A model generated the notes under the pieces. The model was not told the DNA's origin. It saw only the letters and a list, made by a program, of their open reading frames with translations, and searched no databases. This document shows positions 4,439-61,322 of a stretch of 64,000 nucleotides of DNA, in pieces (positions within the stretch are counted from its first letter, which is position 1; the number at the start of each line of letters is the position of its first letter). The position numbers were made by a program, and so were the translations under genes. Origin of the DNA: Escherichia phage vB_EcoM_SP1; sequence record MT682709.1. The stretch is one strand, 5' to 3'.

Positions 4439-4470
4439 GTTTACATACCACAAGGACCGTGGTACTATAC
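4439..4470 (+). promoter_or_regulatory. T4-type early promoter (GTTTACA -35, TACTAT -10, 17-bp spacer)
   Basis: GTTTACA at 4439, TACTAT at 4463; conserved leader ACAACTATCAACTGATAC shared with promoters at 8300 and 24968. Confidence 0.5.
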
Positions 4471-5163: not shown

Positions 5164-5218
5164 GTTTACAAGACTGTTCCTCTGTGGTATTATTATCCTA
5201 TCAACTACGGAGGAACAG
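5164..5218 (+). promoter_or_regulatory. early promoter with 9-bp inverted repeat bracketing the -10 (promoter-early stem-loop-like)
   Basis: GTTTACA at 5164, TATTAT at 5188; arms CTGTTCCTC 5174-5182 and GAGGAACAG 5210-5218. Confidence 0.4.
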
Positions 5219-5221
5219 AAA

Positions 5222-5335
5222 ATGAAAAAGATTGTTAAAGCTATATGGAATGTAGTTATAATACTAGTAGTTTTGAGTATATTCCCAATCGTTTTAATGA
5301 TTGATGTATTAAACGCTTACTTTGGATTTATGTGA
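5222..5335 (+). CDS. tiny hydrophobic peptide, 37 aa
   Basis: RBS GGAGGAACAGAAA then ATG; MKKIVKAIWNVVIILVVLSIFPIVLMIDVLNAYFGFM. Confidence 0.45.
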   Translation: MKKIVKAIWNVVIILVVLSIFPIVLMIDVLNAYFGFM

Positions 5336-8098: not shown

Positions 8099-8244
8099 GT
8101 CCATTCATTGGTATTACAAGCGCGGCGTTAGTATCTGGTAGCATTTTACTGGCGGGGTTAGGTGTTGTTCCAGCCGTAGCAGGAGGTCTTCTTGCGTTCG
8201 GCATTCAACGTGTTATCATGACAGTTATCACAGTCATGCAGTAA
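8095..8244 (+). CDS. small hydrophobic protein, 49 aa
   Basis: ATGA overlap with gene 52 stop; Gly/Ala-rich hydrophobic sequence. Confidence 0.4.
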   Translation: MSPFIGITSAALVSGSILLAGLGVVPAVAGGLLAFGIQRVIMTVITVMQ

Positions 8245-8249
8245 TTTTA

Positions 8250-8280
8250 GGGAGAGCCTCGGCTCTCCCTTTTTATTTTA
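8250..8280 (+). terminator. rho-independent terminator
   Basis: GGGAGAGCC-TC-GGCTCTCCC hairpin followed by TTTTTATTTT. Confidence 0.65.
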
Positions 8281-8299
8281 AAATTTTTTTCACAAAACG

Positions 8300-8329
8300 G
8301 TTTACAACCAAAGCATACTGTTGTACTAT
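8300..8329 (+). promoter_or_regulatory. T4-type early promoter upstream of motA
   Basis: AT-rich UP region, GTTTACA at 8300, TACTAT at 8324; upstream 35 nt nearly identical to the cassette at 24939. Confidence 0.55.
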
Positions 8330-8370
8330 ACAACTATCAACTACTGATACAGAATTACGGAGATTAGAAA

Positions 8371-12601: not shown

Positions 12602-15600
12602 TTAGAATTTAAAATATTTACTAATTCTGCGAGCAATTTTAGTAAAGAGAGGCGTTTTCAATTCTTTAATTTCTTCACTCATTTCCTGAATAGCCTTAAT
12701 TAAAAGAGCATTCACCGCAGAGTTAGAAATTGTTAAAATCTCTTCTGGGTTATCAAGAGATCCGACATTAGAAGTGCTAACAGCTTCCGGTAAAATTTCT
12801 TGTAAATCCTGCGCGATAATACCAATCTCATGTGCGATGACTTCTCGGTCAGAAAGAGACTTAACTTTATCGTAGGTTTTAACTTTTAGTTTATTTACCT
12901 TATCTACCGCATTTTCTTCGTAGTCTTCAACGTTAATTTTCAGACGACGGTCGGAACGAATATAAACATCGTTACAGTAAACCGACGCACTAGATGTGAA
13001 ATCACCATTTGCAGCCCATGAATACCAGCCGCCTTTGTTCATATGCATCATTACGGTAGCATTACCACCGCCAGCATGAACACCCATTGCCGCAAGATAA
13101 TCAGCACCCCAATGAACTGCTTTCCAAATTGAATATGCTTGGGTTTGTGAATTCTGACAATCTAAGAGAATACCAGCAGGACGGTTGCGCCAGTCATCCC
13201 AAGCACCACCAAAAACATCACCACGGATAAGAGCGTATTCACTATTATAAGGAACTTGCTCTCCCGCTTTAATCATTGCACCCTGGAAGTGATGACTAAA
13301 TGAACCCCCATGATTATTGCGAATATGTAAAATACCCTCATCTGTAGCCCAGATAACAGCCTTTTCTGCATCGCTATCATCTTTAAACCAGATGTGGCGA
13401 GCACCAGTTGAGTTTTTGATGGTTATTCCGCTAGGTCCATGCACGGTCAAAGAACCAGCAACATCAAACATCAAACTGTTATCTGTCCTGCGTTCAGCAT
13501 AGAAGTGATAACCTTTTGAATCGCCGACTTCCAATACTGCCGCGCGACCAACTTCTGAATTTCCCCAATTGTTGATAGAGAATCGTTCAGAGCTATTATT
13601 CATCTGATTTAGGTATAATGTACCATCAGTGAATGTTTCGCCAAAGAAACGAGTTTTAATTGCACCTGTCGCTAAAGTACGTTCAGTGGAAAAATGGGCG
13701 CCTTGACTATCTTCTAACTGGATGATGTTATCACGAGCGTTATTGCTATCACCCCAATGGTTAAATTTAAAATAATCTCGTGATCCTAAACGTCCGGCGT
13801 CAAAAGTCATCAAGCCTTTCATGTTAATATCACCGCCGACCAGAACGTTATCCGGGAAGTTAACTGTACCATCAGCATTAAATCTTGATGTATGGCCCTG
13901 TGTTCCATCTTCTTTGATATGGTGTATCACGAATGTACCTGAATTAATTTCAGTACCTAAAGACCAAACTGCTTTACCTTGAAGGTATTTTTGCTTAACA
14001 ATCGGATAATATTTGCTTATAGCAGCATCATCATCGATTTCCTGGAAAATAGGAGCCGCTTGAACATATTGAATATCATAACCACCAGCGCCAGCGCCAT
14101 GACCAGTAAATTTAATATAGCCGTTTGCTGCGAACGTATTGTAACTTGATTGTAAATCTGGAATAGTAACTTTACCAGTATCTAAAGCCATACTAAACGG
14201 GCGAAGTGGACCGATATCGCCATGTTTACCTTCACCGTAAGCAGTTGGAATAATATGAAGACTGCCTTCTGAACGTCTAAAAATAGCTCCATAATCTGCG
14301 TTCCAAATGCGAAGACCATTTACAGCATTTGTCGCGATTTCACCGGCTGCGCTGATTGTACCGTCAAATGTAGCATTTTTTACTACTGTAAAGTTTTCAT
14401 TAACAATCTGGGTGCCATTTATAACCGATTCGATTTTACCCGCAGTTGTTCGTTGAATATAATGCATCCATCCAATATCATCAGAAATTTCCATGACATT
14501 TTTACGGGTGCCTTCACTTGGATTAGTAAAAGTATTTCCCCAAACAGCTATATACATGTTATCAACGGAGCTTTGACCCATGGTATAGCCTTTAAACATT
14601 AAAGTTGAATTATTATTTCTACCATCAATATTAACCGAACCACCAATAACGTCAATATTGCCTGGAGTAACTAACAAACCGCCATGAGTATTAATGTTTG
14701 TGGTACCCTTACCGCGGAAATAGTGATGATAGTTACCGCCTTGATAATATCCTAAAAGAGTTTGACCGTCACCATACGCGTTATTATCATGGTAAGTAAC
14801 AACAGTGGCTAATGCATAGTTTTCTGTCGGCGGCGTTGTCATAAGAATCCCGTCCGGAGAATAACCCATAACCATTTTTCTAAGGCTTTGTGTTTCCGCA
14901 GGGCCGTAGATGAAAGTTCTTGTTCCATTGTTTACTGTATGAAAATATCCGTCCTGATGCCATTTAAATCCGGTGTCATTATCACCAAGAGCAATTGAGG
15001 CCGTTCCTAATTCAGAATATCCTTTGGGGCCGCCTGGAAGACCTACAGAAATAGAATGACCCGCTTTCAATCCACCAGCCCAGTTAAACGACCAAAGATA
15101 AGTGTCTAAGCCATCTCCGGAATACCAGGTTATTCCGTCATTAACATTAACTTCGTGGAAAATACCTGCTCCTACAGCATTTCGCATAACACGGAGGTGG
15201 TTAATAGCCGTTTCGCCTTCTGCCATTGGAGTGTTATTTGATAATGAATAGATATCATAATCGCCCGTCTTCTTCCCATTTGTAATAACTTTATCGGTCA
15301 AAATCTGAGGAGACGAAATAGATTTCCATGCTGACACTTCAGGTGAAGTAAATAGGCCACTGCCTGAAAATGCATAGGTGCTTTCATCACCAGCGGCGTA
15401 GTCTTGAACGCGGATATTAACTACTTGCGTAGTTAATCCATCATTAGCCGGGGCATAAATGATTCCGCGTTCGCGGCTATTGCCATCGAAAAAACGAACA
15501 TGTGATGTACCTGAACTTTTTGTAATAATTTCTCCGCCTTCGGTCATAATCTGCCCGGCGGCAATAATATCGCGAGTTACTCGAGCAATACCAGTTAAAT

Positions 15601-15859
15601 TAAAATTACCTGTCTGAGTGAAGGTGCCATTTAAAGTATAATCACCAGTTTGATTATAGTTTCCTATATGAATAACATTCCCGTCAATGCTACCGCCTTT
15701 AGCAAAACCCAGATCAATGATATTTCCTTGGTCGTCTTTAGTAAAAAGTACGCGGTCTTTTAAGTTTATAGCCAATTCACCTTCGGCTAATACTGAAGCG
15801 GCAGGACGTGCTCCTGCAGTTTTGCTTCTTTTAAATTGTATTTGTTTTAAAGTAGCCAT
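12602..15859 (-). CDS. 37: long tail fibre distal subunit gp37 with C-terminal intramolecular chaperone domain
   Basis: 1085 aa; N-terminus MATLKQIQFKRSK as T4 gp37; C-terminal ~116 aa begins SDRRLKINV, resembling endosialidase-type self-cleaving chaperone domains. Confidence 0.9.
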   Translation of the reverse strand: MATLKQIQFKRSKTAGARPAASVLAEGELAINLKDRVLFTKDDQGNIIDLGFAKGGSIDGNVIHIGNYNQTGDYTLNGTFTQTGNFNLTGIARVTRDIIAAGQIMTEGGEIITKSSGTSHVRFFDGNSRERGIIYAPANDGLTTQVVNIRVQDYAAGDESTYAFSGSGLFTSPEVSAWKSISSPQILTDKVITNGKKTGDYDIYSLSNNTPMAEGETAINHLRVMRNAVGAGIFHEVNVNDGITWYSGDGLDTYLWSFNWAGGLKAGHSISVGLPGGPKGYSELGTASIALGDNDTGFKWHQDGYFHTVNNGTRTFIYGPAETQSLRKMVMGYSPDGILMTTPPTENYALATVVTYHDNNAYGDGQTLLGYYQGGNYHHYFRGKGTTNINTHGGLLVTPGNIDVIGGSVNIDGRNNNSTLMFKGYTMGQSSVDNMYIAVWGNTFTNPSEGTRKNVMEISDDIGWMHYIQRTTAGKIESVINGTQIVNENFTVVKNATFDGTISAAGEIATNAVNGLRIWNADYGAIFRRSEGSLHIIPTAYGEGKHGDIGPLRPFSMALDTGKVTIPDLQSSYNTFAANGYIKFTGHGAGAGGYDIQYVQAAPIFQEIDDDAAISKYYPIVKQKYLQGKAVWSLGTEINSGTFVIHHIKEDGTQGHTSRFNADGTVNFPDNVLVGGDINMKGLMTFDAGRLGSRDYFKFNHWGDSNNARDNIIQLEDSQGAHFSTERTLATGAIKTRFFGETFTDGTLYLNQMNNSSERFSINNWGNSEVGRAAVLEVGDSKGYHFYAERRTDNSLMFDVAGSLTVHGPSGITIKNSTGARHIWFKDDSDAEKAVIWATDEGILHIRNNHGGSFSHHFQGAMIKAGEQVPYNSEYALIRGDVFGGAWDDWRNRPAGILLDCQNSQTQAYSIWKAVHWGADYLAAMGVHAGGGNATVMMHMNKGGWYSWAANGDFTSSASVYCNDVYIRSDRRLKINVEDYEENAVDKVNKLKVKTYDKVKSLSDREVIAHEIGIIAQDLQEILPEAVSTSNVGSLDNPEEILTISNSAVNALLIKAIQEMSEEIKELKTPLFTKIARRISKYFKF

Positions 15860-15867
15860 AAGTCCTC

Positions 15868-16557
15868 TTAATAATAGCCGAAATCTTGAACAGAATCCTT
15901 AATAACAATTTGATCAAATCGTGGAACATGCGAGGGTTGAGATGCAGGATTCTGCGAAAAAAGGTTTGGCGCAGTTAAATTTCCTGTCATAGTATCTCCA
16001 GAGCGTAATACCCTAGAGTTTGCGTTTGCTGTAACAATATTTATTGCTCCATCGACATAATCTTTGCGAGTTAAGTGTGCTGGGCCGGTCGGTACTGAAG
16101 CATTAGAAATAACTTGTTGGCCAGAAACAATATTGCCAACTGTTTCAACTTTACCACTCCTGGCATTAAACCAGATTGTGCGTCCCTGGATCCCATCACT
16201 TGTGCATGTGTTCCAAATACCAATGCCGTACCATGAACGTAAATCCATGTTAGCTTTTTCTCTGGAAGCTCCATCTCCATTGCCAGAATATAACCCATTC
16301 AGGTCTGAACCGCCAGAAAACGTTGCAGAAATCCTAACGCCTTCTTTAAATTCTACTTCTTTTTGGAAACCTTGAGACTTTGTGCCACCATTAGCTTTAG
16401 AAACGAAATCGTTATCAGTTGCCTGTGGTTTATTGTATTCTGAATATATTTTAAATGATTTATAGAGTACATCGTCACCGGCTGGATTCAATGGAAAATT
16501 TCCTTGATGCCAAATGACAGAGCCTCCAGTTGTTGAACCTACTTTTAAATCAGCCAT
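15868..16557 (-). CDS. 36: long tail fibre distal connector gp36
   Basis: 229 aa; synteny between 35 and 37. Confidence 0.85.
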   Translation of the reverse strand: MADLKVGSTTGGSVIWHQGNFPLNPAGDDVLYKSFKIYSEYNKPQATDNDFVSKANGGTKSQGFQKEVEFKEGVRISATFSGGSDLNGLYSGNGDGASREKANMDLRSWYGIGIWNTCTSDGIQGRTIWFNARSGKVETVGNIVSGQQVISNASVPTGPAHLTRKDYVDGAINIVTANANSRVLRSGDTMTGNLTAPNLFSQNPASQPSHVPRFDQIVIKDSVQDFGYY

Positions 16558-24896: not shown

Positions 24897-24918
24897 TAGA
24901 TTATATTACTAATTAATT

Positions 24919-24946
24919 GGGGACCCTAGAGGTCCCCTTTTTTATT
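24919..24946 (+). terminator. rho-independent terminator after gene 32
   Basis: GGGGACC-CTAGA-GGTCCCC hairpin plus TTTTTTATTTT. Confidence 0.65.
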
Positions 24947-24967
24947 TTAAAATTTTTTCACAAAACA

Positions 24968-24997
24968 GTTTACATTCTTGTCATTCCATGGTACTAT
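24968..24997 (+). promoter_or_regulatory. T4-type early promoter
   Basis: GTTTACA at 24968, TACTAT at 24992; near-identical upstream AT-rich block to promoter at 8300. Confidence 0.55.
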
Positions 24998-25041
24998 ACA
25001 ACTATCGGCAATACTGCTGATGATTAAAAGAGGAAAATAAT

Positions 25042-25697: not shown

Positions 25698-25726
25698 TTT
25701 ACAGTAGGGTAGTAGTGTGATACTAT
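25697..25726 (+). promoter_or_regulatory. early promoter with imperfect inverted repeat around -10
   Basis: GTTTACA at 25697, TACTAT at 25721. Confidence 0.45.
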
Positions 25727-25751
25727 TACCCTATCAACTAAGGAGAATAAA

Positions 25752-25994
25752 ATGAGATTACAACGCCAGAGCATTAAAGATTCAGAAGTTAGAGGTAAAT
25801 GGTATTTTAATATCATAGGTAAAGATTCTGAACTTGTTGAAAAAGCTGAACATCTTTTACGTGACGTGGGATGGGAAGATGAATGCGATGGATGCCCTCT
25901 TTATGAGGATGGAGAAAGCGCAGGATTCTGGATTTACCACTCTGACGTTGAACAGTTTAAAGCTGATTGGAAAAGTGTGAAAAAGTCTGTTTAA
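25752..25994 (+). CDS. hypothetical protein, 80 aa
   Basis: ORF with RBS AGGAGAAUAAA. Confidence 0.55.
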   Translation: MRLQRQSIKDSEVRGKWYFNIIGKDSELVEKAEHLLRDVGWEDECDGCPLYEDGESAGFWIYHSDVEQFKADWKSVKKSV

Positions 25995-32869: not shown

Positions 32870-34457
<1,588 letters not shown>

Positions 34458-34460
34458 GCT

Positions 34461-34514
34461 GTTTACAAGTCCCTCGTGTTGTGTTATAGTAGTCTTACTG
34501 ACATAACATGAGGA
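34461..34514 (+). promoter_or_regulatory. early promoter cassette, copy 1 of a perfect 54-bp repeat
   Basis: GTTTACA at 34461, TATAGT at 34485; identical to 48746-48799. Confidence 0.55.
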
Positions 34515-34518
34515 CTTT

Positions 34519-35025
34519 ATGATGGATTTGCAGCTTATTACTACTGAAATGGTCGTTGAAGCATACGGTGATACTACAGATGGGATTTCTGTATTCAAAG
34601 GAAATCGTCGAGTTGGATATATCACTGATCTTAAGAAAGATTTAGCTAAGCAAGTCAAGCGGAAAACGACCATTAAAGAATATCGAAATCGTCGTCTTGA
34701 GCAAGCCCGCGATATGCTTCCTGATGCGGTTGAAGAGATGAAAGTCTTTTTAGAAAATCAACTCGCTAAGTATGAGTGCGAAGTGTTCATTAATCAGACT
34801 CAGCCCAATGTTCATATCAATAGCTGTAAATGCTACATCATCGTTAATCCTTTGACTGGAAAGCATCGTCTTGGAATTAGTAATCCAAATCGTAGTGCAT
34901 CGGATATGGCAGAAGATGTTGAGGCATGCTTTAAAATTTCTAAATCTCCGGCTGAACATCATATTTTAATTAACGGTCTTTCTCAAGATGATATTGTAGA
35001 GGTTATTAAAACTTTATGCAATTAA
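34519..35025 (+). CDS. alc: Alc (blocks host transcription elongation on dC-DNA)
   Basis: 168 aa ORF (T4 Alc 167 aa); position between rnlA and pseT cluster. Confidence 0.7.
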   Translation: MMDLQLITTEMVVEAYGDTTDGISVFKGNRRVGYITDLKKDLAKQVKRKTTIKEYRNRRLEQARDMLPDAVEEMKVFLENQLAKYECEVFINQTQPNVHINSCKCYIIVNPLTGKHRLGISNPNRSASDMAEDVEACFKISKSPAEHHILINGLSQDDIVEVIKTLCN

Positions 35026-37785: not shown

Positions 37786-37824
37786 GTTTACTTTACGGTA
37801 GAGTTGTGATATTATAGCTCTACC
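37786..37824 (+). promoter_or_regulatory. early promoter with 7-bp inverted repeat bracketing the -10
   Basis: GTTTAC at 37786, TATTAT at 37810; arms GGTAGAG 37797-37803 and CTCTACC 37818-37824. Confidence 0.45.
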
Positions 37825-37845
37825 AAAACAAATGAGGAAATTGAA

Positions 37846-38373
37846 ATGAGCGAATGGTTTGAAGAAGATAAGGTTTATCGCTTTAAAGCTGGATATAAAG
37901 ATATTTTTAATGAAACTTGCGGGGCTAATAAACGAATTGCCCAGTTTATTGGGGAAAATTCATTTAAAGTAAAAATAGATCCTGCGAAAAATGTTATTAG
38001 CATTAAACGCGAAATTGATGATTGTTGGTATAAAGCTGTTGATGTAATGGGCGAATCTTATAAAGTTAGCCCGTTATTTTCAATTGCTTATATGTTAGAA
38101 TATTCTTTTTTCGAAGAAGTTCAAAAAGATGATTCTGTCAGTAAATTTGAAATTAAAACTGATAAAGAAATTAAGTGGAAAGTAGTAGGTATTACTGGTT
38201 GTATGTTTTATATCTATGCTCAAACTGATACGAAGGAAGAAGCTAAAAAGAAAGCTCTAGAATATCTTGAAGAGTATGAAGAAGGTCCGGTAATGATTAC
38301 TCAAGATGCTGAATTAGTTTCTGTCAAATTAGTTAAAAACGTTGAAAGTAAGGAGCTGGGATCAACATGCTAA
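37846..38373 (+). CDS. hypothetical protein, 175 aa
   Basis: ORF with RBS AUGAGGAAAUUGAA. Confidence 0.55.
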   Translation: MSEWFEEDKVYRFKAGYKDIFNETCGANKRIAQFIGENSFKVKIDPAKNVISIKREIDDCWYKAVDVMGESYKVSPLFSIAYMLEYSFFEEVQKDDSVSKFEIKTDKEIKWKVVGITGCMFYIYAQTDTKEEAKKKALEYLEEYEEGPVMITQDAELVSVKLVKNVESKELGSTC

Positions 38374-41477: not shown

Positions 41478-41510
41478 GTTTACAGTATGGTTCCTTTGTG
41501 ATAGTATTAT
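41478..41510 (+). promoter_or_regulatory. early promoter
   Basis: GTTTACA at 41478, TAGTAT/TATTAT -10; TTTGTG/CACAAA inverted repeat around -10. Confidence 0.45.
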
Positions 41511-41534
41511 CTTACACAAACAAAGGAGAATAAA

Positions 41535-41867
41535 ATGAAAACGATTAATCTGAACGCTGCAGTTAAAACTAAATGCTTCAATGGTAAATATGATGAAACT
41601 ATGTGGTTCTTAATGGCAGTTGAAGGTGATATTATTGAAGTAGAAACAACAGAAGGTATGGGAACAGATTTCACCTTTACAATTCAAGTTCATAATTTCT
41701 TTACTGGTTGGATTTATGAATTGAATACAGTAATCGTTGGAAAAATTGAACAAAATGAATTAGGTGAATGGTATTATGTTACAGCTCGCCAACGTGCCGA
41801 ACGCTTAATTGAGAAGATGAAAAAAGTTGGTAAACTTGACATGCAGCATTGGAAAGTAGTAAAATAA
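41535..41867 (+). CDS. hypothetical protein, 110 aa
   Basis: ORF with RBS AAGGAGAAUAAA. Confidence 0.55.
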   Translation: MKTINLNAAVKTKCFNGKYDETMWFLMAVEGDIIEVETTEGMGTDFTFTIQVHNFFTGWIYELNTVIVGKIEQNELGEWYYVTARQRAERLIEKMKKVGKLDMQHWKVVK

Positions 41868-41869
41868 TT

Positions 41870-41909
41870 GTTTACTTTGGTACAGGACATGATATTATAT
41901 ACCTGTACC
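41870..41909 (+). promoter_or_regulatory. early promoter with 8-bp inverted repeat bracketing the -10
   Basis: GTTTAC at 41870, TATTAT at 41893; arms GGTACAGG 41879-41886 and CCTGTACC 41902-41909. Confidence 0.5.
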
Positions 41910-41934
41910 GCAATTAAACATCTTGGAGAATAAA

Positions 41935-42300
41935 ATGAACTACATTAACTTTGAACGTAAATATGTTTCTAATGGTATTGCAGGTTCTATTGATACCATC
42001 TGCCTTTGGAAACATCAAAATGGATCAGTATGCGAAATTGAACAGTATATGACTCCTAACTACGTTTATATGCGATTTGAAAACGGTATTACAGTTTCAA
42101 TCACGATGGAAGGTTCCAACTTTAAAATCGCTCTGGATGATGATTTTCGTCAACGCGATTTAGGGACTCACCCTTGCTGGAATGGTGCTAATCGCAAGCT
42201 TCTAGTTAAAACTTGGATTCGTCATATTCTGAGTAACAGAGCTAAACCTGAGCATCTTGAAGCAATCTTTGATGTAGTTCTTAACGAATTTGATATTTAA
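41935..42300 (+). CDS. hypothetical protein, 121 aa
   Basis: ORF from ATG 41935 with RBS GGAGAAUAAA. Confidence 0.55.
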   Translation: MNYINFERKYVSNGIAGSIDTICLWKHQNGSVCEIEQYMTPNYVYMRFENGITVSITMEGSNFKIALDDDFRQRDLGTHPCWNGANRKLLVKTWIRHILSNRAKPEHLEAIFDVVLNEFDI

Positions 42301-42341: not shown

Positions 42342-42629
42342 ATGTTTATGACTACTTATTTTGATACCCGCAAAAATTTCTGTGAAGTGGTTTTCTCAAA
42401 GGCGCCTAAAGACCTTCCTGCTCATTTGCAGCCTACCAGTGAATCGATTAAAAACTACGTTGATGTGGTTTGTCCTTTAGAGTTTCGTACTGTAAATGGG
42501 CGCGATACTTTAGCTATCACTAAACTCAATCGCGAAATTGACATTGACCCTTCAATTGCGCATGAAATTAACATTTCTGATATTGGCGGCGGTAATGTTA
42601 AATCGCACGGTTTTCAGATGAGGTTCTAA
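42342..42629 (+). CDS. hypothetical protein, 95 aa
   Basis: ORF with RBS GAGGAAAAUACU. Confidence 0.5.
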   Translation: MFMTTYFDTRKNFCEVVFSKAPKDLPAHLQPTSESIKNYVDVVCPLEFRTVNGRDTLAITKLNREIDIDPSIAHEINISDIGGGNVKSHGFQMRF

Positions 42630-42826
42630 TGAAATTCTTTTTAGGTCAAACTGTTGAATTAAAGGGAGTTGGTATACCTGGATTAATTTCTAAGGTTTTA
42701 CCCGCATTTAAATTGGGAGATGTTCAAGTAAAAGAGGCCTATATTGTTTCCTGGGTAGATGGAAATGAAGACCTTCGTATGGGTGATGAATTATCTCCTA
42801 TTTACGGATTAAAGGAATTAGTATGA
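42629..42826 (+). CDS. hypothetical protein, 65 aa
   Basis: TAATG-coupled ORF. Confidence 0.45.
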   Translation: MKFFLGQTVELKGVGIPGLISKVLPAFKLGDVQVKEAYIVSWVDGNEDLRMGDELSPIYGLKELV

Positions 42827-46260: not shown

Positions 46261-46268
46261 TATAAATA
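46261..46268 (+). promoter_or_regulatory. late promoter TATAAATA upstream of alt
   Basis: exact octamer 21 nt upstream of alt start. Confidence 0.5.
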
Positions 46269-46288: not shown

Positions 46289-48385
46289 ATGATGGAACTA
46301 ATTACAGAATTATTTGACGAAGATACTACTCTTCCGATTACAAACTTAAATCCAAAGAAGAAAATACCACAAATTTTTTCAGTTCATGTTGATGACGCAA
46401 TTGAACAACCAGGTTTTCGTTTATGTACCTATACATCTGGAGGTGATACTAATCGCGATTTAAAGATGGGCGATAAAATGATGCATATTGTTCCTTTTAC
46501 ATTAACCGCTAAAGGTTCAATTGCTAAATTGAAAGGTCTTGGTCCAAGCCCAATTAATTATATCAATTCGGTTTTTACTGTTGCAATGCAAACAATGCGT
46601 CAGTATAAAATTGATGCCTGTATGCTCCGTATTCTTAAGTCTAAAACTGCTGGTCAAGCTCGACAAATTCAAGTTATTGCTGATAGACTTATCCGTAGTC
46701 GTTCAGGTGGCAGATACGTCCTTCTTAAGGAACTCTGGGATTATGATAAAAAGTATGCATATATTCTTATACATCGCAAAAATGTATCACTAGAAGACAT
46801 TCCAGGGGTTCCGGAAATTAGTACCGAGCTCTTTACTAAAGTTGAATCGAAGGTCGGTGATGTTTATATCAATAAAGATACTGGAGCTCAAGTAACTAAA
46901 AATGAGGCAATTGCAGCATCTATTGCACAAGAAAATGATAAACGTTCTGACCAAGCTGTAATCGTTAAAGTTAAAATTTCCCGTAGAGCAATTGCACAAA
47001 GTCAATCATTAGAGTCTTCTAGATTTGAAAGTGAATTATTCCAGAAGTATGAATCTACAGCAGCTAATTTTAATAAACCAGCTACTGCACCTTTAATTCC
47101 CGAAGCAGAAGAAATGAAAATTGGAATTAATTCATTAGCTTCTAAAACTAAGGCAGCAAAAATCATTGCCGAAGGAACTGCAGATGAACTTCATTATGAC
47201 TATAAATTCTTTTCAAAAAGTGAGGTTAATGAAGTTTCTGAAAAAATTAAAGATGTAATTCTTAATGCGATTAAAAATGAACCGACTACTTCAATAAAAT
47301 GTTTAGAGAAATACGCAGCAGCTGTTAATCAATTATTTGAAGAATATAAAGATACTTGGCTTGATAAACATAATAAAACCCGTAAAGGACAGCCAGATGA
47401 AGTCTGGGAAGAAATAACTAAAAATTCCTGGAACGCGACAAAAACTAAATTCCTCAAAAGAATGATTTATAGTTTCTCTGGAATTGGTGCAGGTCCAATG
47501 ATTGATATTACTATTGCCCGTGATGGTTCTAAATATACTCCATCACAAAAGCGTGGCATTAGAGAGTATTGCGGTTCAGGATATACTGACATCAATAATC
47601 TTCTTTTGGGTCGTTATGATCCAGAACGTTATGAAGTAATGAGTGAAAAAGAAATTGAAGCTGCTATAACTAATTTAGATTCTGCTTTTGAAAATGGTGA
47701 TCGTATACCAGAAGGCATTACAGTTTATCGTGCTCAAAGTATGACTGCTCCTATATACGAAGCACTAGTTAAAAATAAAGTATTCTATTTCAGAAATTTT
47801 GTATCTACTTCTTTAACTCCTATCATTTTTGGACGTTTTGGAATTACACATGCTGGTATTGGTCTTTTAGAACCAGAATCTCGCAATGAATTAACAGTTG
47901 ATAAAAATGAAGAAGGAATAACTATTAATCCAAACGAAATAAGAGCGTATAAAGAAAATCCTGAATACGTTAAAGTTCAAATAGGATGGGCAATTGATGG
48001 AGCTCATAAAGTTAATGTTGTATATCCAGGAAGTCTCGGAATAGCAACAGAAGCTGAAGTTATTCTACCGCGTGGATTGATGGTCAAAGTTAATAAAATA
48101 ACTGATGCTTCTAATAATGACGGAACAACATCTAATAATACAAAACTCATTCAAGCTGAAGTTATGACTACGGAAGAGCTCACCGAATCGGTAATCTATG
48201 ATGGAGACCATTTAATGGAAACTGGTGAATTGGTTGCAATGACAGGTGATATTGAAATAGAAGACAGAGTTGACTTTGCATCATTTGTTTCATCAAACGT
48301 TAAACAGAAAGTAGAATCATCTCTTGGAATTATTGCGTCTTGCATAGATATTACAAACATGCCTTACAAGTTCGTTCAAGGATAA
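46289..48385 (+). CDS. alt: ADP-ribosyltransferase Alt (head-packaged)
   Basis: 698 aa; N-terminus MELITELFD with I-x-E prohead-protease site; position after gene 30. Confidence 0.85.
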   Translation: MMELITELFDEDTTLPITNLNPKKKIPQIFSVHVDDAIEQPGFRLCTYTSGGDTNRDLKMGDKMMHIVPFTLTAKGSIAKLKGLGPSPINYINSVFTVAMQTMRQYKIDACMLRILKSKTAGQARQIQVIADRLIRSRSGGRYVLLKELWDYDKKYAYILIHRKNVSLEDIPGVPEISTELFTKVESKVGDVYINKDTGAQVTKNEAIAASIAQENDKRSDQAVIVKVKISRRAIAQSQSLESSRFESELFQKYESTAANFNKPATAPLIPEAEEMKIGINSLASKTKAAKIIAEGTADELHYDYKFFSKSEVNEVSEKIKDVILNAIKNEPTTSIKCLEKYAAAVNQLFEEYKDTWLDKHNKTRKGQPDEVWEEITKNSWNATKTKFLKRMIYSFSGIGAGPMIDITIARDGSKYTPSQKRGIREYCGSGYTDINNLLLGRYDPERYEVMSEKEIEAAITNLDSAFENGDRIPEGITVYRAQSMTAPIYEALVKNKVFYFRNFVSTSLTPIIFGRFGITHAGIGLLEPESRNELTVDKNEEGITINPNEIRAYKENPEYVKVQIGWAIDGAHKVNVVYPGSLGIATEAEVILPRGLMVKVNKITDASNNDGTTSNNTKLIQAEVMTTEELTESVIYDGDHLMETGELVAMTGDIEIEDRVDFASFVSSNVKQKVESSLGIIASCIDITNMPYKFVQG

Positions 48386-48388
48386 ATC

Positions 48389-48774
48389 ATGGAACTTATT
48401 GCAGAATTATTTGACGGCGCTTCGGCGCCGGTTGTTAACTTAAATCCTAAGCATAAAATACCTCAAATTTTTGCTATTCAAGCCGGTGAAGAAAGCGTAC
48501 TTCCTGGATTTAGATTTTGTACATACACCTCTGACGGTGATACAAATAAAACGTTAAACCAGGCGATAAAATGATGCATATCGTAATGATAGGTGTTAAT
48601 GAGAAACTATCATTAGTTAAGCTTAAAAACTTGAGTGGAAATCAAATTGGTGTCATTAATGCTGTTTTTGATACTGCTCTTCAAACAATGAAACAGTATA
48701 AAATCGACGCATGCCTATTCCGCGTACTAAAAAGTTCAAAATGTAGTTTACAAGTCCCTCGTGTTGTGTTATAG
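48389..48774 (+). pseudogene. frameshifted, truncated paralog of the alt N-terminal region (two ORFs of 61 and 67 aa)
   Basis: MELIAELFD..CTYTSDGDTN and MMHIV..QTMKQYKIDACLFRVLK align with Alt residues ~1-125; a 1-nt indel before AAAATGATGCAT separates the two frames. Confidence 0.55.
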
Positions 48775-48799
48775 TAGTCTTACTGACATAACATGAGGA
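48746..48799 (+). promoter_or_regulatory. early promoter cassette, copy 2 of the perfect 54-bp repeat
   Basis: identical to 34461-34514; GTTTACA -35 and TATAGT -10. Confidence 0.5.
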
Positions 48800-48806
48800 A
48801 CACAAA

Positions 48807-49097
48807 ATGAAATCTTCTTTACGCTTTTTAGGTCAAGAACTTGTAGTTGAAGGCGTTATTCCTGCTGATAATGCTTTTAACGAAGCGGTTTACGATGAAT
48901 TTATTAAAATTTTTGGAACAGATAAAAAGTTCGGAATTTTTCCTTCTGAAAATTTTTCAAAGCCAGAACAGACTGAAAGTATTTTTCAGGGTGTAGTAAC
49001 AGGTAAATTTGAGTCAGAAGCTCCGGTAAAAATTGAAGTTTATATTGAAGACAGTTTAGTTGCTTCAGTTGCTGCTTTTATTTCATTCCGTAAATAA
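48807..49097 (+). CDS. hypothetical protein, 96 aa
   Basis: ORF downstream of promoter cassette with RBS GAGGAACACAAA. Confidence 0.55.
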   Translation: MKSSLRFLGQELVVEGVIPADNAFNEAVYDEFIKIFGTDKKFGIFPSENFSKPEQTESIFQGVVTGKFESEAPVKIEVYIEDSLVASVAAFISFRK

Positions 49098-49102
49098 AAA
49101 TA

Positions 49103-49122
49103 TGGGGACCTTTCGGTCCCCA
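49103..49122. terminator. bidirectional terminator hairpin between convergent genes
   Basis: GGGGACC-TTTC-GGTCCCC with A/T tracts on both sides. Confidence 0.6.
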
Positions 49123-49125
49123 TTG

Positions 49126-59903: not shown

Positions 59904-61322
59904 ATGGCTTTTACAGTTGATATAACTCCTAAAACACCAACAGGGGTTATTGATGAAACCAAGCAGTTTACTGCTACACCCAGTGGTGAAACTGGAGGTG
60001 GAACTATTACCTATGCTTGGAGTGTAGATAATGTTCCACAGGATGGAGCTGAAGCAACCTTTAATTATGTATTAAAAGGACCTGCTGGTCAAAAGACTAT
60101 TAAAGTGGTTGCAACAAATACAGTTCCAGAAGCTGAAGCTGAAACAGCTGAAATTAGTACAACTATCACAGTTCAAAATAAGACACAGACAACTACCTTA
60201 ACTGTAACTCCTAATAGTCCTCCAGAAGGAGTAATCGGAACAGCCGTTGAATTTACTGCTGCCTTAGCTTCACAGCCATCGGGCGCATCTGCTACGTATC
60301 AATGGTACGTTGACGGTTCTCCTGTGAGCGAAGCAACTTCTGCTACATTCAATTATACTCCTACTACAAGCGGAGTTAAAAAAATTAAGTGTGTAGCTCA
60401 AGTAACTGCGACAGATTATGATGCACTGAGCGTTACTTCTAATGAAGTATCATTGACGGTTAATAAAAAGACGCAGACAACTACCTTAACTGTAACTCCT
60501 GATAGTCCTGCTGCTGGAGTAATTGGAACCCCGGTTCAATTTACTGCTGCCTTAGCTTCTCAACCTGATGGAGCGTCTGCCACGTATCAGTGGTATGTAG
60601 ATGATTCACAAGTTGGTGGAGAAACTAACTCTACATTTAACTATACTCCAACTACAAGTGGAGTAAAAAGAATTAAATGCGTAGCCCAAGTAACTGCAGA
60701 AAATTATAATGAAAAGGAAGTTACTTCCAATGAAGTATCATTGACAGTTAATAAGAAGACAATGAATCCACAGATTGCATTGACTCCTCCTTCTATTAAT
60801 GTTCAGCAGGATGCTTCGGCTACATTTACTGCTAATGTTACTGGCGCACCTGAAGCAGCACAAATTACTTACTCATGGAAGAAAGATTCTTCTCCGGTGG
60901 AAGGGTCAACTAACGTATATACTGTTGATACCTCATCTATTGGAAGTCAAACTATTGAAGTTACTGCTGTCGTTGCAGCAACTGACTATGATAGTAAAAC
61001 AGTTAAAGCCACAGGTCAAGTTCAAGTGACTGATAAAGTTGCTCCGGAACCAGAAGGTGAATTACCTTATGTTCATCCTCTTCCACATCGTAGCTCAGCT
61101 TATATCTGGTGCGGTTGGTGGGTTATGGATGAAATCCAAAAAATGACTGAAGAAGGTAAAGATTGGAAAACTGAAGATCCAGATAGTAAGTACTACTTGC
61201 ATCGTTACACTCTTCAGAAGATGATGAAAGACTATCCAGAAGTTGATGTTCAAGAATCGCGTAATGGATACATCATTCATAAAACTGCTTTAGAAACTGG
61301 TATCATCTATACCTATCCATAA
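59904..61322 (+). CDS. hoc: highly immunogenic outer capsid protein Hoc with four Ig-like domains
   Basis: 472 aa; N-terminus and C-terminal capsid-binding region match T4 Hoc as recalled; two diverged ~96-aa tandem Ig-like repeats. Confidence 0.8.
   Translation: MAFTVDITPKTPTGVIDETKQFTATPSGETGGGTITYAWSVDNVPQDGAEATFNYVLKGPAGQKTIKVVATNTVPEAEAETAEISTTITVQNKTQTTTLTVTPNSPPEGVIGTAVEFTAALASQPSGASATYQWYVDGSPVSEATSATFNYTPTTSGVKKIKCVAQVTATDYDALSVTSNEVSLTVNKKTQTTTLTVTPDSPAAGVIGTPVQFTAALASQPDGASATYQWYVDDSQVGGETNSTFNYTPTTSGVKRIKCVAQVTAENYNEKEVTSNEVSLTVNKKTMNPQIALTPPSINVQQDASATFTANVTGAPEAAQITYSWKKDSSPVEGSTNVYTVDTSSIGSQTIEVTAVVAATDYDSKTVKATGQVQVTDKVAPEPEGELPYVHPLPHRSSAYIWCGWWVMDEIQKMTEEGKDWKTEDPDSKYYLHRYTLQKMMKDYPEVDVQESRNGYIIHKTALETGIIYTYP

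Follow-up and report, generated by a model that had tools for sequence, protein, structure and literature searches.

We analysed a stretch of 64,000 nucleotides from the genome of Escherichia phage vB_EcoM_SP1 (MT682709.1), here called the window, which is of Tequatrovirus type, shares about 97% identity with RB18, PST and relatives, and whose plus strand runs in the direction of T4 prereplicative transcription. A sequence of 54 bp, GTTTACAAGTCCCTCGTGTTGTGTTATAGTAGTCTTACTGACATAACATGAGGA, is present in exactly two copies in the window, one in front of alc (copy A) and one in front of alt.-3 (copy B), both on the plus strand, in direct orientation and spaced 14,285 bp apart. The features at the two sites are the following.

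33297-34457, plus strand: rnlA (gene 63), upstream of copy A, with its stop codon 4 nt before the element
34461-34514, plus strand: copy A, early promoter, leader and Shine-Dalgarno sequence (SD) of alc, in the rnlA-alc intergenic region (exact match)
34462-34490, plus strand: promoter core of copy A, with -35 TTTACA at 34462-34467, TG at 34482-34483 and -10 TATAGT at 34485-34490
34467-34517, plus strand: predicted RNA hairpin of copy A, with 5' arm 34467-34491, loop 34492-34495 and 3' arm 34496-34517
34510-34514, plus strand: SD GAGGA of copy A (motif scan)
34519-35025, plus strand: alc, inhibitor of host transcription (Pfam ALC PF17527, 8e-92; T4 annotation)
46261-46268, plus strand: late-promoter motif TATAAATA, just 5' of alt (46289-48385)
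48389-48774, plus strand: ORFs alt.-1 and alt.-2, between alt and copy B, left over from a second Alt paralog (note in the T4 annotation)
48746-48799, plus strand: copy B, early promoter, leader and SD of alt.-3 (exact match)
48747-48775, plus strand: promoter core of copy B, with -35 TTTACA at 48747-48752, TG at 48767-48768 and -10 TATAGT at 48770-48775
48757-48798, plus strand: predicted RNA hairpin of copy B, with 5' arm 48757-48776, loop 48777-48780 and 3' arm 48781-48798
48795-48799, plus strand: SD GAGGA of copy B (motif scan)
48807-49097, plus strand: alt.-3, 96 aa, DUF5498 (Pfam DUF5498, 1e-64)
49102-49123, bidirectional: terminator-like hairpin beyond alt.-3 (terminator scan)

The initial annotation had reported a perfect 54-bp repeat 14.3 kb apart, and a self-comparison of the window gave exact matches at both coordinates. 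There is no third match in the window at up to three mismatches, and none at all in 100 dinucleotide-preserving shuffles of it. Its calls of a -35, a 17-bp spacer, a -10 TATAGT and an SD GAGGA were right at both copies, and the open reading frames that it placed directly 3' of the copies, alc and one of 96 codons, are both real genes with Pfam matches. In the T4 annotation alc begins at the second ATG (34522 in the window), 7 nt past the SD, and this is the probable start also here. The identity of the copies runs with sharp edges from the G of GTTTACA to the A of GAGGA, and the flanks, aligned over 100 nt on each side, are unrelated. The T4 reference NC_000866.4 has the exact 54-mer at 136283-136336 (the site of copy A), its alt.-3 copy differs by one base, G40A, and no regulatory features are annotated at either site in this record. 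The repeat is by itself thus ordinary, as it was already there in the T4 reference, without detectable genome instability.

Copy B has alt upstream of it and, downstream, the late genes 54 and 48, which run the opposite way. Its first 29 nt are also the end of the alt.-2 ORF, the stop codon of which is made up by positions 27-29 of the 54-mer. RB18, RB6, phage 132 and EH2 have a full-length Alt paralog of 685 aa, the end of which coincides with the first base of copy B. The gene alt.-3 is dispensable in T4 (PMC11618068). The 14.3-kb interval between the copies holds genes 30 (DNA ligase) and 31, cd, pseT, rIII and alt.

Both promoter cores have a 17-nt spacer and 10 of 12 consensus matches, plus the extended -10 TG (consensus scan). 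They resemble the T4 early promoters, for which a consensus has been described (PMC2988021), in the GTTTACA at -35, the 17-nt spacer, the TGn and the TAnnnT at -10; they differ in the spacer itself, which in the usual T4 early promoter is of the type CCAC-AAGGA-GTGG (as in the window promoter at 4440), but in the 54-mer is complementary to its own leader. With the usual distance of 7 nt after the -10, transcription would start near A34497 in copy A and A48782 in copy B, at about position 37 of the 54-mer. Directly 5' of copy B stands AAAAAGTTCAAAATGTA and of copy A ATCCCAGAAGGATACTAAGCT; the A/T-rich tract of copy A is found farther upstream, and there is no obvious A/T-rich UP element immediately in front of it.

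In the T4 omics data both alc and alt.-3 are early as RNA and early as protein, while the RNA of alt.-1 and alt.-2 is middle, alt is late, and rnlA has early RNA but late protein; the proteins of alt.-1 and alt.-2 were not detected (PMC9697503 supplement). Judged by these T4 classes, each 54-mer is a border between temporal expression classes, which fits an independent early start, and fits also a need to block the translation of later or longer transcripts. That each copy is a sigma-70 early promoter with an SD that serves a real gene is supported by these data together with the motifs.

The whole 54-mer is also an inverted repeat, a feature that was overlooked in the first reading. The promoter spacer and the -10 form the 5' arm of a hairpin, and the leader through the SD forms the 3' arm. 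In the predicted fold, positions 11/12-25 of the 54-mer pair with 40-53/54 and 28-31 with 36-39, leaving a loop at 32-35 and a bulge at 26-27, and the SD at positions 50-54 pairs with positions 11-15. The SD lies wholly within the 3' arm in copy A (34510-34514) and for the most part in copy B (48795-48799). When 76 nt around each copy were folded, the predicted minimum free energy was -27.3 kcal/mol (z -5.4) for copy A and -23.0 kcal/mol (z -4.5) for copy B, and none of 200 shuffles was as stable in either case. A scan of the whole window at gathering threshold gave no match to any Rfam family.

The -10 occupies positions 25-30, and the probable start at about position 37 is found in the apical part of the hairpin. 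An RNA that begins there would hold the 3' arm only, and is predicted to be unstructured (z about +1). The cost of opening the stretch from SD to AUG, given as ensemble free energy, was accordingly different for the two kinds of RNA: in read-through RNA it was 13.3 kcal/mol for copy A and 12.5-13.6 kcal/mol for copy B, compared with 3.7 and 1.9 kcal/mol, respectively, in promoter-initiated RNA. We used opening energies and not the probability of the SD being unpaired, since weak local pairing in copy B lowers that probability too. On transcripts from upstream the hairpin should then, as far as the model goes, hide the ribosome binding site. The stem has three G-U pairs in Tequatrovirus, where the sense RNA folds at -24.4 and the antisense at -15.4 kcal/mol, and this strand asymmetry speaks for a structure in the RNA of the coding strand. 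In the other lineages nearly all stem pairs are Watson-Crick, and the strand test can there not separate RNA from DNA structure.

We examined the upstream regions of alc in other genera, and in 36 loci that an Alc alignment retrieved from IMG/VR, and compared 29 distinct alc promoter elements drawn from both IMG/VR and GenBank. GTTTACA-N17-TAnnnT is found directly 5' of alc in most lineages, with a spacer that in most of them is complementary to the SD region. The stem contains the SD in 22 of the 29 elements, using at least eight different stem sequences. It stops just 5' of the SD in four (Kanagawavirus, L039/L054) and is absent in three (Mosigvirus, L055 and Ac42), and Gaprivervirus has no promoter in front of alc but an extra ORF instead; the occlusion of the SD is thus not universal. 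The two arms of the stem differ in sequence from lineage to lineage:

Karamvirus and Moonvirus: spacer arm TCTCCATTTGGTT, leader/SD arm AACCAAATGGAGA
Klebsiella phages: spacer arm TCCTCATCAG, leader/SD arm CTGATGAGGA
Dhakavirus: spacer arm TCTCCTCAT, leader/SD arm ATGAGGAGA
EcS1: spacer arm TCCTCATTTTGTT, leader/SD arm AACAAAATGAGGA
L053: spacer arm TCCTCATTTCGTT, leader/SD arm AACGAAATGAGGA
L040: spacer arm ACCTCTCATTTT, leader/SD arm AAAATGAGAGGT
L041: spacer arm CCTCTCGTTTTTG, leader/SD arm CAAAAACGAGAGG
L046: spacer arm ATCCCATTTTGTT, leader/SD arm AACAAAATGGGGAT

The register of the helix varies by lineage, and we therefore preferred a register-free swap test, in which the duplex energy is calculated for the spacer of every lineage with the leader of every lineage, to covariation in the columns of a MAFFT alignment. 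The cognate pair was the most stable one in 10 of 13 lineages, and the mean energy was -18.4 kcal/mol for cognate compared with -9.7 kcal/mol for swapped pairs. The observed mean was reached by none of 20,000 permutations, a result that is strong but, the lineages being related, gives no calibrated probability. The alc hairpin has kept its layout in at least 10 lineages with different stems, and we see this as strong evidence that the structure is under selection.

Variation within the genus points in the same direction. The 41 Tequatrovirus copies vary only at positions 11, 12, 15, 16, 18, 27, 29, 32-34 and 40. The variants in the stem that recur retain or improve the pairing, C11T and C15T by giving U-G pairs and G16A and G40A by turning G-U into A-U, whereas those that break it (C12A, G18A and G40T) are singletons. 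Positions 1-10 and 41-54 are invariant in the 41 copies. The invariance of the 14-nt 3' arm is not statistically striking when taken alone.

The two copies do not seem to be of equal age. Homologs of alt.-3 are found in six other genera, Karamvirus, Kagamiyamavirus, Marfavirus, Dhakavirus, Mosigvirus and Kanagawavirus, and the alt.-3 promoter is in all of these of the ordinary early type, with the consensus spacer CCAC-AAGGA-GTGG that is also seen in the window promoter at 4440, and without any stem over the SD. Pet-CM3-4 and EcS1 have a plain alt.-3 promoter although their alc elements (L027 and L028) are strongly stemmed. As alc is stemmed and alt.-3 plain in the other genera, the hairpin-promoter would be native to alc and the alt.-3 copy of Tequatrovirus secondary, probably derived from alc. 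The ancestral alt.-3 promoter would already have had two motifs in common with that of alc, GTTTACA at its start and ACATGAGGA at its end. These are the exact ends of the 54-bp identity, as expected of a conversion tract bounded by microhomology, and we infer such a tract between the two promoters. Six variants recur at the two sites, in different genomes, among them the combinations 11T+16A and 32A+34T. This hints at a continuing exchange between the copies, in a sample that is small and with variants that are mostly transitions.

There are likenesses between promoters also outside Tequatrovirus. The alc leader of Mosigvirus matches the 3' arm of the Tequatrovirus type and forms a duplex of -20.6 kcal/mol with the Tequatrovirus spacer, while its own spacer is of the consensus type and resembles the spacers found at alt.-3. 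This suggests, as a lead only, that half of the promoter has been replaced in Mosigvirus, in the opposite direction. The alc leader of the Dhaka-like L044 matches the alt.-3 leader of FB over 29 nt, and a reciprocal conversion in Mosigvirus and Dhakavirus may be taken as a lead. The likenesses of Mosigvirus and L044 may in part be nothing but the general early-promoter consensus.

Hairpins that hide a ribosome binding site are well known in T4. In the genes e, soc, 49 and I-TevI, and in mobE of phage Aeh1, long transcripts sequester the binding site while an internal promoter gives a translatable RNA (PMC3014915). As in e, soc, 49 and I-TevI, the predicted stable hairpin of the 54-mer includes the SD, the promoter lies inside it and the promoter's own transcripts are without the 5' arm. 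The internal promoter of those genes is however a late one (TATAAATA), whereas that of the 54-mer is a sigma-70 early promoter, the own spacer and -10 of which serve as the anti-SD arm. Those genes are silent early and on late; in the 54-mer the order would be reversed, with the gene on early and shielded from later or upstream RNA. The 54-mer is most likely an early-promoter variant of the e/soc/49/I-TevI mechanism, with a function that we deduce from sequence and modelled structure. The review of hairpins sequestering ribosome binding sites makes no mention of alc, and alt.-3 is not among its cases (PMC3014915). We found no description of a leader hairpin at alc or alt.-3 in the literature searched, the scope of which did not extend to older T4 papers in subscription journals.

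Downstream of the late promoter of alt, no terminator-like site is met on the plus strand before the one at 49102-49123, beyond alt.-3, and the terminator scan called none between rnlA and alc. With a late promoter before alt and no terminator-like site until 49102, read-through into copy B is plausible. We hypothesize that a sigma-70 immediate-early promoter has been fused to the leader and SD of its gene, alc in copy A and alt.-3 in copy B. Starting at about position 37, transcription would include the 3' arm only, leaving the SD free for early translation, while an RNA initiated upstream would carry both arms, fold into the hairpin and have its SD buried. The incoming transcripts would be prereplicative RNAs containing rnlA at copy A and late alt RNAs at copy B, and the translation of alc and alt.-3 would in this way be tied to the transcripts from their own early promoters. 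In an ancestor of Tequatrovirus, the hairpin-promoter of alc would have replaced the plain promoter of alt.-3 by ectopic recombination or gene conversion, and selection on promoter, stem and SD, perhaps aided by conversion now and then, would since have held the copies near-identical.

An early promoter inside a hairpin that occludes the SD, duplicated from alc to alt.-3, is the best explanation that we can offer, and one in which we have slightly more confidence than doubt. The repeat with its motifs and fixed sites, the modelled fold, the covariation and the lack of rearrangements are what we observe; where transcription starts, that translation is blocked, and how and in which direction the element was copied is inferred from these and from expression classes in the literature. 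It counts against it that the stem stops short of the SD or is missing in some alc lineages, and that alt.-3 works without a hairpin in the other genera. It also counts against a block that there are upstream stop codons near or inside the 5' arm (that of rnlA 4 nt before the element, that of alt.-2 at positions 27-29), as terminating ribosomes could melt the stem and turn the block into translational coupling.

The hairpin could instead serve the message upstream of it and overlap the next promoter by chance: it could stabilise the 3' ends of the rnlA and alt RNAs, be a barrier to their processing, or cause pausing or attenuation. The stem does start a few nucleotides from the upstream stop codons, the SD is outside the stem in Kanagawavirus, L039/L054 and the window promoters at 25698, 37787 and 41871, and the stem-loops of promoter early stem-loop (PeSL) units have been proposed to be terminators or attenuators. 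We nevertheless find such a role unlikely, as no U-tract comes behind the stem (copy A has CUUUAUG there, copy B ACACAAA and Karamvirus AAAACGAAA), and as the 3' arm ends precisely on the SD in 22 of the 29 alc elements, which a service to the upstream message does not need. An intrinsic terminator at the hairpin of the 54-mer was considered and rejected, since there is no U-tract behind the stem and the terminator scan did not call it.

Translational coupling proper, in which the stem is opened by ribosomes ending the upstream ORF and alc and alt.-3 are linked to rnlA and to alt.-2 or the Alt paralog, respectively, appears quite improbable. The geometry is suggestive, with the rnlA stop 4 nt before the element, the alt.-2 stop inside the 5' arm at positions 27-29, and the stop of the full-length Alt paralog overlapping position 1 in RB18 and others. 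A stop 4 nt upstream leaves, on the other hand, most of the 5' arm (positions 11-31) beyond the terminating ribosome. The protein of rnlA is late in T4 and Alc is early, contrary to a tight coupling, and the alt.-1 and alt.-2 proteins go undetected in T4.

The initial annotation had seen the repeat as a substrate for recombination and a sign of cassette-mediated module shuffling. In the PeSLs of T4-like phages a promoter is directly preceded by a terminator stem-loop and an AT-rich tract, and these units cluster in hyperplastic regions by variable ORFans, where recombination between them rearranges the genomes (Arbiol 2010; Comeau 2014). The 54-mer is like a PeSL in being repeated and conserved, and in joining a sigma-70-like early promoter to an SD and to the start of a downstream gene. 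The stem-loop of a PeSL is however found upstream of the promoter, whereas the stem of the 54-mer spans promoter and leader and nothing upstream is shared; and where PeSLs adjoin variable ORFs, both sites of the 54-mer and the genes downstream of them are conserved in about 499 Tequatrovirus records. The window has canonical PeSL-like units elsewhere, at 8242-8338 and 24910-25006 (terminator, AT-rich tract and early promoter, in that order), and the contrast with the 54-mer is thus internal to this genome.

In a scan of 50,697 phage records the 54-mer was confined to genomes of Tequatrovirus type, and no site other than those at alc and alt.-3 was found for the 54-mer or the core of the element in these records, in IMG/VR or in JGI metagenomes. 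All copies in seven fully examined Tequatrovirus genomes, and in IMG/VR and metagenome contigs, are at the two orthologous sites, and the comparison of flanks in related phages that had been called for placed them always 5' of alc and alt.-3. The 499 Tequatrovirus records have 997 places, so that practically every genome carries both parental sites. Chimeric queries, for which coverage of at least 80% at one place was demanded, detected neither the deletion junction (end of rnlA, 54-mer, alt.-3) nor the junction of a circle or duplication (end of alt.-2, 54-mer, alc) in any of the 499. It is true that direct repeats can give deletion or duplication, as had been claimed in part, but the inversion that was also proposed is impossible between them. 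The interval holds genes 30 and 31, which are essential according to T4 genetics, and a deletion would therefore be lethal; a duplication of 14 kb would exceed the T4 headful. What the two stretches of 54 bp represent is one T4-type early promoter with its leader, present in two fixed copies, and not a mobile cassette.

Short homologies do suffice for recombination in T4 (Singer 1982, as cited in PMC2839356), and PeSL-mediated exchange is documented in RB49/phi1, PST/T4 and nt-1/KVP40. Copy B must itself stem from some ectopic exchange, Mosigvirus seems to have swapped in a consensus-type spacer at alc with the old 3' arm retained, and there are the six variants common to both sites in different genomes. 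That the identical repeats are mainly portable linkers, which like PeSLs move, delete and duplicate modules, is still very unlikely, given the two fixed orthologous sites without junctions or a third context in 499 records, the essential genes between the copies, the missing upstream terminator stem-loop by which PeSLs are defined, and the flanking genes, neither of which is a variable ORFan. Shuffling would moreover leave the covariation of the stem across genera unexplained. Recombination is relevant only historically, likely in the origin of copy B and possibly in gene conversion between the copies.

There is very little chance that this is a plain duplication of a promoter without special function, with a stem that is nothing but incidental complementarity. 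T4 early promoters do share long consensus stretches, and 54 bp would differ little anyway at a divergence of about 3%, but this does not agree with the z-scores of the folds (-4.5 to -5.4), the covariation in at least 10 lineages and the same design at unrelated promoters in the window. A DNA-level element that controls the promoter (a cruciform, a single-strand hairpin or a dimeric protein operator) is barely credible, even if the inverted repeat brackets the -10 region and the Watson-Crick stems outside Tequatrovirus are equally stable on both strands, as a conserved pairing without conserved sequence speaks against a protein operator, the three G-U pairs in Tequatrovirus would become C-A mismatches on the opposite strand or at the DNA level, and the variants G16A and G40A turn G-U into A-U.

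The layout of an early promoter inside a predicted SD-occluding hairpin is not confined to the two copies of the 54-mer. We scanned the window for sites resembling early promoters that are followed by an SD and an ORF, which gave 13 sites, and in seven of these, both copies of the 54-mer included, the spacer is complementary to its own leader. The SD is within the stem at the promoters at 5165 (-23.2 kcal/mol, z -5.1) and 41479, while the stem is just 5' of the SD at 25698, 37787 and 41871. No stem between spacer and leader was found at the consensus-type window promoters at 4440, 8301 and 24969. As judged from these predicted stems, the 54-mer belongs to a recurrent promoter design. A wider generalization, which we offer tentatively and regard as possible but doubtful, is that many early promoters of T4-like phages are "self-insulating", with the 17-nt spacer as an anti-SD arm that restricts translation to RNA started at the gene's own promoter and makes the gene blind to read-through RNA, which is abundant in these genomes.

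If this is true, the alc element is the best-conserved self-insulating promoter, maintained through compensatory substitutions in at least 10 lineages, and the 54-bp repeat is the record of its transplantation to alt.-3 by ectopic conversion. The promoters at 5165 and 41479 would then make it a general regulatory principle, one that is undescribed in the literature searched (older subscription papers being outside its scope). It would be a case of a regulatory element copied between loci 14 kb apart, and a design that is useful for synthetic phage engineering, and two different genes under one identical control element make it directly testable.

The early regions of T4 are transcribed into overlapping polycistronic RNAs from many tandem promoters, and the distinct timing of the genes is only partly understood. 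With the anti-SD strand encoded in its spacer, a promoter could in little space make translation depend on the start site of the transcript, and this would extend the mechanism of lysozyme, soc, 49 and I-TevI from late to immediate-early genes. It would also explain how Alc, the terminator of host transcription, and Alt.-3 are early proteins despite the late or long transcripts that enter their genes.

Complementarity between the promoter spacer and the site's own leader, the stem found in both copies of the 54-mer (early promoter, leader and SD, upstream of alc and of the 96-aa gene alt.-3), was detected in the scan of the window at five further early-promoter-like sites, all on the + strand:

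5165-5225, +, early-promoter-like site, spacer pairs with own leader; SD within the stem (z -5.1)
41479-41538, +, early-promoter-like site, spacer pairs with own leader; SD within the stem
25698-25755, +, early-promoter-like site, spacer pairs with own leader; stem stops 5' of the SD
37787-37849, +, early-promoter-like site, spacer pairs with own leader; stem stops 5' of the SD
41871-41938, +, early-promoter-like site, spacer pairs with own leader; stem stops 5' of the SD

In the same scan the spacer-leader stem was absent at the consensus-type promoters at 4440, 8301 and 24969. The window also offers a useful contrast to the 54-mer in its two canonical PeSL-like (promoter-early stem-loop) units, at 8242-8338 and 24910-25006 (+), which are 72% identical (repeat family D5) and where a GC-rich terminator hairpin is followed by a T/A-rich tract and then a consensus early promoter.

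The alc gene of the window has adjacent in-frame ATGs at 34519 and 34522, lying 4 and 7 nt from the SD respectively, and the T4 annotation uses the second, giving 167 aa. In the Mosigvirus Shigella phage Shf125875 (L019, 341-406) alc is annotated to begin at position 341, with an ATG that overlaps the -35 of its promoter, ATGGTTTACA. Translation almost certainly begins instead at the ATG at 404, 3' of the SD GAGGAG, and the start at 341 is probably a mis-annotation common to RB69-type records.

Between alt and copy B, alt.-1 and alt.-2 (48389-48774) are leftovers of a second Alt paralog. Over 46289-46319 and 48386-48416, the starts of alt and alt.-1 are 90% identical. A full-length second paralog of 685 aa, terminating at base 1 of copy B, is present in RB18, RB6, phage 132 and EH2 (comparison sequences L009, L010, L011 and L013 at 13944-16001). 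Downstream, one further feature lies between the convergent alt.-3 and gene 54:

49102-49123, bidirectional terminator-like hairpin, ATGGGGACC...GGTCCCCAT

At its 5' end (48824-48857) alt.-3 is similar to 42637-42670, the 5' end of a 65-aa ORF (42629-42826) at the gp30.5 position, with 71% identity over 34 nt (repeat family D16), and the two N-termini may be distantly paralogous. A 288-nt unit repeated twice in tandem at 60168-60743 (78% identity, repeat family D1) looks like an internal domain duplication within a coding region.

Of the phage records PV654520.1 and PQ799574.1, the one titled 'Pseudomonas phage vB_PSGBLB0006' (142 kb) shares 97% identity with the E. coli T4-like region of the window, which suggests a mislabelled or contaminated record. 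The other, 'vB_EcoM_Maryam' (113 kb), is incomplete and without the alt.-3 site.

The alc element of a Dhaka-like phage (L044) and the alt.-3 element of Dhakavirus FB (L066) share the 29-nt leader CCTTACACAAACATGAGGAGAACATTATG without a mismatch but have different spacers. There may have been partial exchange between the alc and alt.-3 loci in Dhakavirus.
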